Below, one piece after another: positions 5,351 to 8,633 of a DNA stretch of 8,633 bases. The stretch lies in the IMG/VR virus record IMGVR_UViG_2541047745_000004, positions 1 to 8,633 of that record; one strand, 5' to 3'. The position numbers were made by a program, and so were the translations under genes. Each line of letters begins with the position of its first letter. Position 1 is the stretch's first letter. The notes beneath the pieces were generated by a model. That model saw only the letters and a program-made list of their open reading frames with translations, was not told the origin of the DNA and searched no databases. Origin of the DNA: a virus. Lineage: Duplodnaviria; Heunggongvirae; Uroviricota; Caudoviricetes.

Positions 5351-5818
5351 TTTGCTGCTCCTCATCATATCGACCCTGCAAGGTCGGTTGGTTTCTCCAC
5401 AAAACAGAGAAGAACACCTGCGGTGGCAGCCGCCCGGATGGATTGGGTTATGAGCCCGTCGTCCGGTGATGCTCTTCTCTGTTTTGTAAAAAGAGCGGTA
5501 CCAGCCGGAAGCAAGGGTACAAGCTGGTACCGCCAGGACTACACACAGCATAAAGTTGTGGTGCCGGGTGCCTCCCGGTGCCTGGCGAAGGTTGCACACC
5601 AGGCGGGTGGGTATCCACAGAAGGTCGACTGTCAGCCTCAACCTTAACCCGCGTGCGCTGAGCCGCATTCACCACAACGCTAAGGATTCTCTCTGGTTGA
5701 AAATACTTAGCTGTTATGTGCCTGCTTTTAGCCACATCAGGCGAGGTGGGCCTGGTTATTCCCCAACAACAAGGATTCGGCTAATCTGGATGACTCTGTT
5801 CTTAGAGGGGATAATTAA
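5351..5818. other. GC-rich, ORF-free, highly self-complementary intergenic element (candidate structured RNA or regulatory leader)
   Basis: About 58-60% GC in sampled stretches. Only low-complexity junk-like ORFs. Multiple inverted repeats: 5399-5415 vs 5471-5487, 5495-5505 vs 5523-5533, hairpin 5559-5581, 5588-5594 vs 5639-5645. Function not established. Confidence 0.4.
5399..5487. repeat. long inverted repeat (15 contiguous bp of 17-nt arms) with 55-nt spacer
   Basis: ACAAAACAGAGAAGAAC (5399-5415) versus GCTCTTCTCTGTTTTGT (5471-5487). The reverse complement of the right arm is ACAAAACAGAGAAGAGC, giving one mismatch. Confidence 0.8.
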
Positions 5819-6331
5819 ATGGGAGCGATTTATGTTAAACGTTTGATTCTGTCGGTAGCACTGATAATACCGATAGCATCCAATGCTTCTGATGCTTTGA
5901 ACCAGCCGAGCAGTAGTCTAAATGATGGTGTTGAGACTTTTTTTATTTCCTGCTTTGATATGCCTCAGGAAACAACTACTGATATGGACGCTTGTCAGAG
6001 AGTTCAGTTAGCTCAGGTTAGTTGGGTTAAGAATAAGTATTCGGTGGCCGCCCTGAATCGTTTGAAACAAGACAACAAGGATGATCCACAGCGTCTGCAG
6101 GAATTAACTGCTTCTTTTAACGCGGAAAGTGAAGCTTGGACAGAATTAATTGAGAAAGCGTCAAAGTCCGTCCAGGTTGATTATGCAGGAGGAACTATAG
6201 CTGGCACTGCAGTTGCATCACGTCAAATTGGTCTTCTGGAATTACAATCCCACGATATCTGGGAGCACTGGCTACGATTCGAGGACTCAACTCCTCCTCT
6301 TTTGCCAGAACCAAAGTTCAAATCTGAGTAA
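5819..6331 (+). CDS. secreted/periplasmic moron protein (170 aa) with Sec-type signal peptide
   Basis: ATG at 5819 with GAGGGG 8 nt upstream. N-terminus MGAIYVKRLILSVALIIPIASNA/SDA has a basic n-region, a hydrophobic core and an S-N-A cleavage motif, with no lipobox Cys. A sampled stretch is about 43% GC. Own intrinsic terminator downstream; convergent with cI. Possible LprI/DUF1311-like periplasmic protein, but that is a weak unverified recollection. Confidence 0.65.
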   Translation: MGAIYVKRLILSVALIIPIASNASDALNQPSSSLNDGVETFFISCFDMPQETTTDMDACQRVQLAQVSWVKNKYSVAALNRLKQDNKDDPQRLQELTASFNAESEAWTELIEKASKSVQVDYAGGTIAGTAVASRQIGLLELQSHDIWEHWLRFEDSTPPLLPEPKFKSE

Positions 6332-6340
6332 TAAGTCATC

Positions 6341-6357
6341 CAGATTGTTAAAGAGCG
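6341..6357 (-). promoter_or_regulatory. boxA-like antitermination motif on the leftward transcript
   Basis: Minus strand reads CGCTCTTTAACAATCTG. The core GCTCTTTAACAAT (13 nt) is identical to the E. coli rrn boxA core (UGCUCUUUAACAAU...) and fits the lambdoid boxA consensus CGCUCUU(U)A. It directly follows a hairpin (antisense of the moron terminator) and lies about 180 nt downstream of the operator repeats. Confidence 0.45.
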
Positions 6358-6358
6358 A

Positions 6359-6381
6359 AGCGTCCTATAGGGCGCTTTTTT
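6359..6381 (+). terminator. rho-independent terminator of the 5819..6331 gene
   Basis: Stem AGCGTCC (6359-6365) / GGGCGCT (6370-6376) with one G-U pair, loop TATA, followed by a T run at 6376-6381, about 28 nt after the stop codon. Confidence 0.65.
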
Positions 6382-6555
6382 GTTGCTAACGAATCATCCT
6401 GGACTTCATATGCCCCAGGCGGCTACTTCGTGGTCGTCCTGACTGTTCGTTTTTGACATTTACTGACCGCTTACGACACATGCACCATGCACCGTGTTGC
6501 AACCAGATTTTGTTGTAATCCTGTAGTTGGTCTGGAACAAAAGATAAAATTAAAA

Positions 6556-6592
6556 TGCGAGATGTGCAAGCAATATTTTGCGAGATGTGCAA
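6556..6592. promoter_or_regulatory. oL-like operator pair (tandem direct repeats) with candidate pL
   Basis: Perfect 14-bp direct repeat TGCGAGATGTGCAA at 6556-6569 and 6579-6592, sharing 11 of 14 positions with TGCGTGATAAGCAA at 7361-7374 in the cI/cro intergenic region. Candidate leftward promoter on the minus strand: -35 TTGCAC (6564-6569), 17-bp spacer, -10 TATCTT (6541-6546). Promoter assignment is tentative. Confidence 0.5.
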
Positions 6593-6605
6593 AATGATGG
6601 GTGAT

Positions 6606-6626
6606 AAAAAGCCACCTTTCGGTGGC
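6606..6626 (-). terminator. rho-independent terminator downstream of cI
   Basis: Minus-strand RNA forms GCCACC-GAAA-GGUGGC (6-bp GC stem, GNRA-type loop; plus 6611-6626) followed by UUUUU (plus A run 6606-6610), 20 nt after the cI stop. Confidence 0.6.
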
Positions 6627-6646
6627 CGATGGATGGGATATTGAAG

Positions 6647-7339
6647 TTAATTATGTCTCTTAAGGGTTTGCGACTGACTGATTAAGACCTTTCCAAAGAC
6701 CATGAATCGGTGTTCGTTTTCGCTAGTAATTCCCCATTCACGGTAAATCTGGTTATCAGAAATCACCAGCAGTTTGTCAGGAATCATTTGAAGTCTTTTA
6801 ACGTATATTTTGTCATCAAAACCAAAGACATATATACCATCACCATCAAACTGATTGATGCTGACATCAACGAAGATGAGATCTCCTGGCTCAATGGTTG
6901 GACACATACTGTCCCCACGAACGTTGATAACTTTGATGTGATTGGCTGGTCGTCCGCCGAACATTGATACAGCATTATCAGTTCTGTATTCGATGGCATG
7001 AATCACATCAATGACATCACCGCCCTGGATAAGGCCATTTCCCGCACTGGCACTGATATCCAGCATTTCAATACGGAACACATCCTTCACCTGCGCAACA
7101 TCCTCATCATTACTGTTTTTATATACAGTATTACTTTTGAGGGCAGAGGTAAAGAGATCAGCAATATCAACACCTAAGCTCTTGGCAATATTACTCAGTG
7201 TTTGTTCGGTAAATTGTTTCTGCTTACCCGTTTCTAAGCGCGAGATGTTCGCCGCATCTACTCCTATTGCTTCAGCGAGATCGGCGATTTTCATGTTCTT
7301 CGCTTGGCGAAGTTGTCTGACTCGGTTTCCTATGTTCAT
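6647..7339 (-). CDS. cI: CI-type prophage repressor (N-terminal XRE HTH, C-terminal S24 LexA-like autopeptidase)
   Basis: 230 aa. HTH ...IADLAEAIGVDAANISRLETGK.... Ala-Gly at SASAGNG as candidate autocleavage site. Catalytic Ser in RGDSMCP and Lys in YVKRLQ. Divergent from the cro-like gene. Confidence 0.85.
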   Translation of the reverse strand: MNIGNRVRQLRQAKNMKIADLAEAIGVDAANISRLETGKQKQFTEQTLSNIAKSLGVDIADLFTSALKSNTVYKNSNDEDVAQVKDVFRIEMLDISASAGNGLIQGGDVIDVIHAIEYRTDNAVSMFGGRPANHIKVINVRGDSMCPTIEPGDLIFVDVSINQFDGDGIYVFGFDDKIYVKRLQMIPDKLLVISDNQIYREWGITSENEHRFMVFGKVLISQSQTLKRHN

Positions 7340-7436
7340 GCGTTTATTACATTTCTTTATTGCGTGATAAGCAAATCAACTTGCGCAAAACACTTGCGTG
7401 AAATAACATGCATAACGCGCAATATTTGGAGGGTAT
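7340..7436. promoter_or_regulatory. divergent switch region (oR operators, pRM and pR)
   Basis: TTGCG half-sites at 7360, 7381 and 7394, with GCAA/CGCAA at 7371-7374, 7384-7388 and 7418-7422. Candidate pRM on the minus strand: -35 TTGCTT (7369-7374), 17-bp spacer, -10 TGTAAT (7346-7351), placing the start about at the cI ATG with no Shine-Dalgarno sequence (leaderless, as for lambda cI). Candidate pR: -35 TTGCGC (7381-7386), -10 TAACAT (7404-7409), weaker. Cro RBS GGAGGG at 7428-7433. Confidence 0.55.
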
Positions 7437-7697
7437 ATGCAATCACCATTACGAAATGTGCGTAAGGCGCATGGTTTCACTTTGCAGCATGTTGCTGCGG
7501 GTGTTCAAGTCAATCCAGCGACGTTGAGTCGTATTGAGAGGCTGGAACAGATTCCATCTATCGAGCTTGCAGAACGTTTAGCCAATTTTTTTAAGGGTGA
7601 AATCAGCGAAATGCAGATTCTTTATCCGGCACGTTTTCAATCTAGCCAAAACCAGAATGGGTTTAAACCACAGGAACAGGAGGTGAACCGTGGGTAA
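7437..7697 (+). CDS. Cro-like HTH regulator (86 aa)
   Basis: ATG 7437 after GGAGGG. HTH ...FTLQHVAAGVQVNPATLSRIER.... Divergent from cI. Overlaps the next gene by 8 nt. Confidence 0.65.
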   Translation: MQSPLRNVRKAHGFTLQHVAAGVQVNPATLSRIERLEQIPSIELAERLANFFKGEISEMQILYPARFQSSQNQNGFKPQEQEVNRG

Positions 7698-8241
7698 GCA
7701 TCACTGGAAAGTAGACAAACAGCCTGAGTGGTTCGTGAAAGCTGTCAGAAAAACTATCGCAGCGTTGCCTGGGGGTTACGCTGAAGCTGCTGACTGGCTG
7801 GATGTAACAGAGAACGCATTATTTAACCGCCTTCGTGCCGATGGCGATCAGATTTTCCCGCTGGGATGGGCAATGGTTTTACAGCGTGCTGCTGGCACTC
7901 ACTACATTGCGGATGCTGTCGCACAGTCTGCTGGTGGGGTGTTTGTATCGCTTCCTGAAATTGAGGAAGTAGAGAACGCAGATATAAACCAGCGCCTGCT
8001 GGAAGTCATCGAACAGATCGGGAGTTACTCAAAGCAGATTCGTTCGGCAATCGAAGATGGGGTAGTGGAGCCACACGAGCAGACAGCAATTAATGATGAG
8101 TTGTATCTGTCAATTTCGAAGCTCCAGGAGCATGCAGCACTGGTCTACAAAATCTTTTGCGCTCCAGAAAAGAGTGACGCCCGCGAGTGTGCAGCTCCGG
8201 GCGTCGTGGCGTTTTGTGTCTGTGGAGAAACTAACGCATGA
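7690..8241 (+). CDS. CII-like phage regulatory protein (CP76-family-like, tentative), 183 aa
   Basis: GTG 7690 with AGGAGG (7678-7683) 6 nt upstream. Position immediately after cro. Overall resemblance to phage regulatory CII (CP76) family proteins from memory; family assignment unverified. Confidence 0.55.
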   Translation: MGKHHWKVDKQPEWFVKAVRKTIAALPGGYAEAADWLDVTENALFNRLRADGDQIFPLGWAMVLQRAAGTHYIADAVAQSAGGVFVSLPEIEEVENADINQRLLEVIEQIGSYSKQIRSAIEDGVVEPHEQTAINDELYLSISKLQEHAALVYKIFCAPEKSDARECAAPGVVAFCVCGETNA

Positions 8242-8633
8242 ACAGTTTAACGGCAAATAACCGTTTGTCGCAACAGCTGGTGGTCAGCGTCGCTGAACAC
8301 CTGTTGTTACGGCATGAATGCAGATTACCAAATCACCTGGCTGTAAGTAACCACAGAGAACTTTACCTGACTGTGGGGGGCGAGTTGTGCAGGAACTTAA
8401 CCGCTGGTTTCGTGACGGAAGAGGACTTTATGTTCATGTTATTCGTTGGGAGCCAGAAACACAGCGCGTTATCTATCTTCGCAAAGACTACCCGCATGAG
8501 TGCTTTAGTCCTTTGTGGAAATTCAGGCGTGATTTTGTTGAGTGTGAAGGACCACCAGCACATTGATTCTGCCATTCCGGGACGTTACACTGTTCAGGCA
8601 CCTTATAAAGCGGGTGCCGGGATTGGCGTCCTG
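8238..8633 (+). CDS. hypothetical protein, open at window end; possibly frameshifted at a G6 tract (see findings)
   Basis: ATG 8238 overlaps the TGA of the CII-like gene (ATGA). The frame has no stop to position 8633, which is why the ORF track omits it. The first 47 codons look protein-like and the remainder looks less convincing. Product unknown. Confidence 0.45.
   Translation, partial: MNSLTANNRLSQQLVVSVAEHLLLRHECRLPNHLAVSNHRELYLTVGGELCRNLTAGFVTEEDFMFMLFVGSQKHSALSIFAKTTRMSALVLCGNSGVILLSVKDHQHIDSAIPGRYTVQAPYKAGAGIGVL

Follow-up and report, generated by a model that had tools for sequence, protein, structure and literature searches.

Two exact copies of the 14-bp sequence TGCGAGATGTGCAA, located at positions 6556-6569 and 6579-6592 with a period of 23 bp, very probably mark the left operator (OL) of a lambda-type immunity switch, at which CI and Cro would act on the early promoter pL. 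They lie in an 8,633-nt stretch of phage DNA (the window) that is an Escherichia coli lambdoid prophage of the SfII/ST64B type. The chromosome of E. coli Combat2C1 matches the window at 100% over 6440-7440, DNA of the Shigella phage SfII is 97% identical to it across most of 6340-7440, and coliphage mEp460 and several Stx2a-converting phages are ∼89 to 90% identical. The immunity region was found in 1040 of 5426 complete E. coli genomes. Its cI repressor gene (6647-7339, minus strand) encodes a protein of 230 aa with an N-terminal helix-turn-helix (HTH) and a C-terminal LexA-like S24 self-cleavage domain (Pfam HTH_3, E=1.2e-11; Peptidase_S24, E=6.1e-19). To the right lie a cro-like gene of 86 aa on the plus strand (7437-7697; Pfam HTH_3, E=3.2e-10) and a CP76-type CII-like gene (7690-8241). 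The cI transcript runs into an intrinsic terminator at 6610-6627 (minus strand), for which the terminator scan returned 7 pairs, 5 of them G-C, a loop of 4, and the tail TTTTTATC. In relatives, the equivalent place also holds a hairpin that follows an A-run (a T-run when read on the minus strand), with differing stem sequences, and a putative terminator for cI is annotated in the SfII record.

The first-pass annotation had placed the repeats immediately downstream of the cI terminator, and the gene map bears this out: the cI stop codon occupies 6647-6649 on the minus strand and the terminator ends at 6610, so that the nearer repeat is 18 bp from the terminator stem. The sites directly adjoin this terminator, which agrees with the proposal that oL/pL stands beside cI rather than beyond a rex-like insert. 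The two 14-bp copies proved exact at both places, the reported 11-of-14 match at 7361-7374 holds for TGCGTGATAAGCAA, and the motif is indeed common to the repeats and the cI/cro intergenic region. A search of the window for the repressor site as first formulated, TGCG-N6-GCAA, yielded three occurrences versus 0.56 expected. This formulation was essentially right but too strict at position 5, and it consequently misses the best right-hand site, ATGCATAACGCGCAA at 7408-7422. As judged from the aligned sites, the true unit is a 15-bp imperfect palindrome with twofold symmetry, WTGCR-N5-YGCAA, and not a direct-repeat motif, since its outer TTGC/GCAA bases are almost invariant and its five central bases vary freely. 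Exact matches to this consensus occur in the window at 6555-6569, 6578-6592, and 7408-7422, and the sequence at 7360-7374 matches with one mismatch. We designate the promoter-proximal site OL1 (ATGCGAGATGTGCAA, 6555-6569; 16.6 bits) and the terminator-proximal site OL2 (TTGCGAGATGTGCAA, 6578-6592; 18.7 bits); they would extend from about -21 to -35 and from about -44 to -58, respectively, relative to the predicted pL start. Overall, the earlier reading of the repeats as repressor operators at pL is supported by these comparisons, with the refinements given here. A 68-aa minus-strand open reading frame (ORF) that runs over the repeats (6386-6592) was rejected as a gene: it had no Pfam hit, it starts before the position at which pL transcription is predicted to begin, and in SfII it is frameshifted by a 7-nt indel. 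An Rfam scan of the window placed no RNA family at the repeats.

Conservation was assessed in 95 prophage loci with repressor identities of 66 to 100%, which included SfII (99%), mEp460 and Stx2a_1447 (both 96%), ST64B (83%), Klebsiella Kp4873-4 (71%), Citrobacter phiNP (69%), eight genomes of other species (66 to 99%), and 80 IMG/VR contigs (97 to 100%). Two sites just past the cI terminator were found in 91 of the 95 loci, so prophages carrying this type of repressor for the most part neither lack the repeats nor leave them unconserved. The start-to-start distance is 21 to 24 bp, mostly 22 to 23, a spacing of about two helical turns that, taken by itself, fits pairwise cooperative binding; cooperating lambda operators are about 20 to 24 bp apart, center to center. 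That the two copies agree perfectly over 14 bp is specific to the allele of the window, which combines GATGT centers with a 23-bp spacing and belongs to a minority (5 of 95 loci). Identity over 14 bp could indicate a recent tandem duplication or gene conversion, or else a chance match, with no function attached to the repeat. We give this explanation hardly any credence. Of 1000 dinucleotide-preserving shuffles of the window, only 1 produced an exact 14-nt direct repeat within 60 nt, and the presence of both copies in nearly all loci, down to 66% repressor identity, effectively refutes it; conserved half-sites around diverged centers point to selection on the half-sites and not to recent copying.

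The positional specificity of the motif was examined with a weight matrix built from 52 sites, in which most of the information resides at positions 1 to 4 and 12 to 15. A scan of 70.4 kb taken from 14 diverse loci put every site of at least 14 bits, with one exception, at five places, namely, OL1, OL2, a left and a right site of the right operator (OR-left and OR-right), and the 5′ end of cro, with the last three at fixed offsets of +21, +69, and +119 from the cI ATG. The exceptional site, which scores 21.5 bits, was found in locus L011, 913 bp rightward of cI, and all other hits outside the five fixed places reached 12.2 bits at most. One half-site consensus therefore recurs on both sides of the repressor gene in several imperfect palindromes. 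A site at the OL2 position, -70 to -76 from the cI end, was scored in 13 of the 14 diverse loci, including a weak one (10.5 bits) in L010, and was absent in L011. No third OL site of at least 9 bits was detected near OL in any of these 14 loci, and OL would comprise two sites, not three. L011 derives from a Pseudescherichia metagenome-assembled genome, in which, around 540-1510, the cI-OR module has neither cro nor an OL beside cI; the module is followed by a 236-aa cysteine-rich ORF with a perfect operator, TTGCGCGTTACGCAA, just past its stop codon.

On the other side of cI, the motif overlaps predicted core elements of the promoters PRM and PR. The OR3-like site OR-left (TTGCGTGATAAGCAA, 7360-7374; 19.6 bits) was present at +21/+22 from the cI ATG in 14 of 14 diverse loci scored, and its right half supplies TTGCTT as the predicted -35 of PRM on the minus strand, with a 17-nt spacing to the -10 TGTAAT (7351..7346). 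This -10 is invariant across the diverse loci and ends 6 to 7 nt before the cI ATG, and the cI start has no Shine-Dalgarno sequence; together, these features suggest that the cI mRNA is probably leaderless. The records of mEp460, Stx2a_1447, and phiNP annotate cI about 15 codons shorter, with a start that would cut into the first helix of the HTH domain. PR is predicted on the plus strand at 7381-7409, with its -35 TTGCGC (7381-7386) within AACTTGCGCAA and its -10 TAACAT at 7404-7409. No change occurs in AACTTGCGCAA across the four-phage alignment or in most of the diverse loci; in L010, L011, and L012, GAC or TAC replaces AAC. The OR1-like site OR-right, the exact consensus match ATGCATAACGCGCAA (17.9 bits), would cover about -8 to +7 of PR; it was scored at +69/+70 in 14 of 14 diverse loci and had been missed in the first reading. 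Between the two strong sites, a middle position (OR-mid, 7381-7395) scores below 9 bits in the window and 9 to 13.7 bits in five divergent loci (L005, L006, L010, L011, and L014). With the strong OR sites 48 bp apart and the middle one weak in this clade, lambda-style cooperativity between adjacent sites is not evident at OR. Finally, a fifth operator may exist inside the 5′ end of cro, at GTGCGTAAGGCGCAT (7458-7472), ∼50 bp past OR-right. The site is weak in the window (10.1 bits), scores 12.4 to 18.5 bits, up to near-perfect, at offset +119/+120 in eight divergent relatives, and persists as noncoding sequence in L011, which lacks cro.

The proteins encoded on either side of OR are consistent with shared use of these sites. 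CI of the window is 99% identical to SfII CI, and its recognition-helix segment, AN(I/V)SR(L/V)ETGKQK, is conserved in 15 of 15 diverse loci, matching the conserved half-site. The recognition helix of Cro (ATLSRIERLEQ) resembles that of CI (ANISRLETGKQ), which suggests that Cro probably uses the same sites. The search against solved structures returned only distant HTH and UmuD matches, so no structure-based argument on specificity can be made. Ala99-Gly100, Ser144, and Lys181 of CI, the self-cleavage residues, are invariant in 11 relatives, which implies SOS-inducible derepression. Binding of the repeats by a protein other than CI, be it Cro alone, the CII-like activator encoded at 7690-8241, or a host factor, is an improbable reading. 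The resemblance of the Cro helix to that of CI speaks for it to the extent that Cro binding is expected anyway. Lambda CII binds TTGC-N6-TTGC; the half-site TTGC recalls this repeat, and a CII-like gene is present. However, the half-sites are here inverted (TTGCR...YGCAA) and do not form a direct repeat with a 6-nt gap, the overlap of the motif with the PR -10/+1 and PRM -35 elements is what one expects of a repressor, and the sites track cI across genomes with differing neighbors, including L011, which has neither cro nor cII. The pattern of a lambda CII-type activator site, specifically, does not fit, with 7 nt between the inverted TTGC and GCAA and a location downstream of cI.

CI thus remains the favored ligand at OL, and the operators are predicted to overlap a sigma-70-type promoter that would drive early transcription away from cI. 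The pair proposed in the first-pass annotation, -35 TTGCAC (6569..6564) and -10 TATCTT (6546..6541) on the minus strand, is present with a 17-nt spacer, which would place the start near 6534. The predicted -35 is formed by the outer half of OL1. In 88 of 95 loci, a distance of exactly 17 bp separates TATCTT from the operator half-site; TAATTT, TATGGT, and TAACTT occur as variants, and L010 has TATCAT. The 17-bp spacing is fixed down to 66% repressor identity, where the sequence to the left is unrelated; in the distant relatives, homology stops just left of the -10 hexamer. The consensus promoter scan called none of pL, PR, and PRM, with pL matching at 7 of 12 positions for a threshold of 9, and the promoter assignments consequently rest on conservation. 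Two rightward candidates noted by eye at OL, TTGCGA followed by GTGATA 17 nt on and one using TAAAAT at 6545-6550, were discarded for want of a proper partner hexamer; both would also point into the cI terminator.

The poor consensus score of pL is one of the reasons to consider that the repeats may be true operators acting only as auxiliary anchors, which loop to OR over ∼0.8 kb, and that the early-left promoter lies elsewhere. Furthermore, no operator covers the predicted pL -10 or +1, the next downstream element is a plus-strand gene with its own terminator, and each of the two widely spaced strong OR sites could pair with one OL site. We nonetheless consider this arrangement unlikely, if marginally less so than binding by another protein. 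The -10 hexamer is near-invariant at its 17-bp distance even where the flanking sequence is unrelated, PRM and PR share the geometry in which an operator half-site serves as the -35, a boxA-like element and an STnc100-like RNA follow downstream on the same strand, and no alternative leftward promoter candidate was found between 6340 and 6540.

The leftward transcript expected from pL over OL would carry several recognizable elements. The boxA-like sequence CGCTCTTTAACAA (6345-6357, minus strand) is on the same strand as pL, ∼180 nt past its predicted start, and is the only exact match in the window to YGCTCTTTAACAA; matches with up to two mismatches total three in the window versus 0.42 expected, and boxA occurs downstream of cI on the same strand in 39 of 94 loci. 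A small predicted hairpin follows boxA in the fold of the pL leader (6300-6535, minus strand), whose overall stability does not exceed that of shuffled sequence (z = -0.44). An N-like gene was not found in this phage group, and the SfIV genome paper describes SfII, SfV, and SfIV as devoid of N, CII, and CIII (PMC3851460). To the left of boxA, a 170-aa ORF occupies the plus strand at 5819-6331. Since plus-strand genes at this position differ or are absent in related phages, it looks like a moron insertion. Its own terminator is a stem-loop at 6357-6378 that ends the plus-strand moron, and boxA abuts this stem-loop. Because the moron and its terminator intervene before the first leftward gene, polymerases starting at pL would have to transcribe against both. 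The moron ORF has a hydrophobic N terminus and a weak match to LprI, a lysozyme inhibitor, that misses the cutoff (E=0.006); it is antisense to the pL transcript, with a conserved leader block (6391-6450) on one side and the STnc100-like element on the other. The leftward operon beyond it has a DUF2303 gene, an HD-domain gene, and an exonuclease gene among its members.

The STnc100-like RNA (RF02076) matches the family over its full length at 5486-5708 on the minus strand, with 45.4 bits versus a gathering score of 47. It sits further downstream in the leader of the early-left operon, on the same strand as pL, and SfII and ST64B have weaker STnc100 matches at the equivalent position. The only other element found in the Rfam scan of the window was a partial isrK, whose first 36 nt lie at the right edge (8598-8633, plus strand). 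mEp460 (L002, 5138-5326) and ST64B (L004, 1057-1245) have a complete isrK followed directly by a C4 antisense RNA, and these RNAs lie within ORFs for regulatory proteins, Rha in mEp460 and the transcriptional regulator Sb41 in ST64B. The association of isrK with a C4 antisense RNA resembles the immI system of P1/P7.

The sites, their conservation and positional specificity, the motif shared with OR, and the fixed spacing to the pL -10 were all computed directly. A coherent model of the switch can be proposed around them. A CI dimer, and probably also Cro, would bind each 15-bp site, with the HTH reading the outer TTGC/GCAA bases and not the five central ones. OL1 would overlap the -35 and spacer of pL, and OL2 would lie one site further upstream, so that CI bound to both in the lysogen would deny RNA polymerase access to pL. 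Once CI underwent RecA-stimulated self-cleavage, the promoter would be released, and the resulting transcript would proceed through the conserved leader and boxA, then antisense through the inserted moron, and on into the early-left genes.

This layout is reminiscent of lambda, as well as of 434 and P22, in that a repressor gene of the HTH plus S24 type is flanked by clusters of imperfect-palindrome operators with a common half-site. Further likenesses to lambda are operators predicted to overlap divergent early promoters, OL neighbors with the spacing of cooperating sites, a cI mRNA from PRM that is probably leaderless, a terminator between cI and OL, and a boxA downstream of the predicted pL. 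Unlike in lambda, the sites span 15 bp instead of 17, and the half-site TTGCR is unrelated. OL appears to have two sites where lambda, 434, and P22 have three, and none of them lies over the pL -10, unlike lambda OL1. Other differences from lambda are the lack of a rex-like insert, the weakness of the middle OR site in the clade, a possible extra site inside cro, the apparent use of operator half-sites as -35 hexamers in all three predicted promoters, and the failure to identify an N gene in the phage group of the window. The closest specific precedent is 933W, whose sites are 15 bp long and rotationally symmetric, with conserved outer positions and poorly conserved centers; it has five natural sites and no OL3, and its repressor is reportedly noncooperative at adjacent sites (PMC3317979). 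Three sites per operator region are therefore not a strict requirement. The repressor and operator sequences of 933W are nonetheless unrelated to those of the window, and a rex-like insert (stk and others) together with tM separates cI from OL in that phage, whereas OL here abuts the cI terminator. SfII and ST64B have the same immunity module as the window; in ST64B, where the repressor is 83% identical and the operator layout is shared, this module corresponds to immC (sb38-sb40), which has been referred to as such (PMC3901673). The public records of SfII, mEp460, Stx2a_1447, ST64B, and phiNP annotate neither operators nor promoters; those of SfII and ST64B annotate cI and cro, with the terminator given in SfII. 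The literature that we searched on SfV, SfII, mEp460, ST64B, and STnc100 yielded no published definition of these operators, and the one paper found to mention mEp460 concerns DicA/Rem and is unrelated to them.

Comparison of closely related loci also unveiled an unusual concentration of variation at OL. Among loci with cI at least 98.5% identical to that of the window, corresponding to 59 haplotypes of 6458-7439, 41 of the 55 positions of a patch at 6555-6609 are variable versus 63 of 927 outside it. The patch takes in both OL sites, the spacer between them, and the DNA as far as the terminator. As many as seven different OL alleles occur on one and the same 927-nt background. Among 63 haplotypes, the patch shows 43 distinct alleles, compared with a median of 3 for other 55-nt windows; the second-highest 55-nt window, with 19 alleles, is at the PR/OR-right region. 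Nucleotide diversity is highest at the OL2 center (0.26), followed by the spacer between the OL sites (0.215) and the OL1 center (0.114); it falls to 0.03 to 0.06 at the OL half-sites and is 0.006 at cI third codon positions, at the cI terminator, and at the pL -10 hexamer, even though the latter borders the patch. With near-identical cI, the OL centers, spacer, and flank that are not expected to be contacted have diversified tens of times beyond cI synonymous sites, and the half-sites, the -10, and the terminator only a few bp away have remained fixed. The variants are mostly single substitutions, with plus-strand A to G the commonest. The pattern was replicated in the mEp460-type clade, where 21 of 56 patch sites are variable versus 59 of 926 outside, and a small 933W-type control (14 haplotypes) also had its allele maximum at pL/OL.

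Several trivial origins of this variability were considered. Sequence errors in IMG/VR were rejected, as complete RefSeq genomes vary likewise: identity to the window reaches 99% or more in 374 records for an 87-nt cI piece and in only 25 for an 87-nt OL piece, and ten complete genomes carry nine OL alleles, with three different ones in the three genomes that have identical cI nucleotides. Since the variant alleles are not those of the sister clade, neither chimeric assemblies nor simple recombination explains them. A mosaic recombination boundary is unlikely, with both flanks of the patch conserved. Parsimony counts were inflated by the poorly resolved background tree, and tree-free counts were used instead; a 2.2-kb sliding-window version retained only 7 sequences because of mosaic right arms and was uninformative. 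We tentatively propose that the repressor-occupied OL is a localized hotspot of change, driven by local mutation or by recurrent selection, although we regard this as a possibility with the odds against it. The mutation rate might be raised locally because bound repressor shields the DNA from repair, or because it forms a roadblock to polymerases reading through the cI terminator. Alternatively, selection could recurrently retune pL repression or the induction set point in each host lineage. The same tendency in the small 933W-type sample suggests that such a hotspot could be general to lambdoid prophages.

Collectively, these comparisons outline an immunity type that is also found in the Shigella serotype-converting phage SfII, in some Stx2a-converting phages, and in Salmonella ST64B. 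A defined 15-bp site and promoter layout would be useful for predicting homoimmune prophages, for annotating pL, PR, and PRM, and for reporter and induction studies of Stx- and serotype-converting phages. The proposed switch mechanism is textbook, of the ordinary lambda type. Only the variability of OL, extreme and local as it is, could offer a new lesson, namely, on how mutation or selection acts at protein-bound regulatory DNA.
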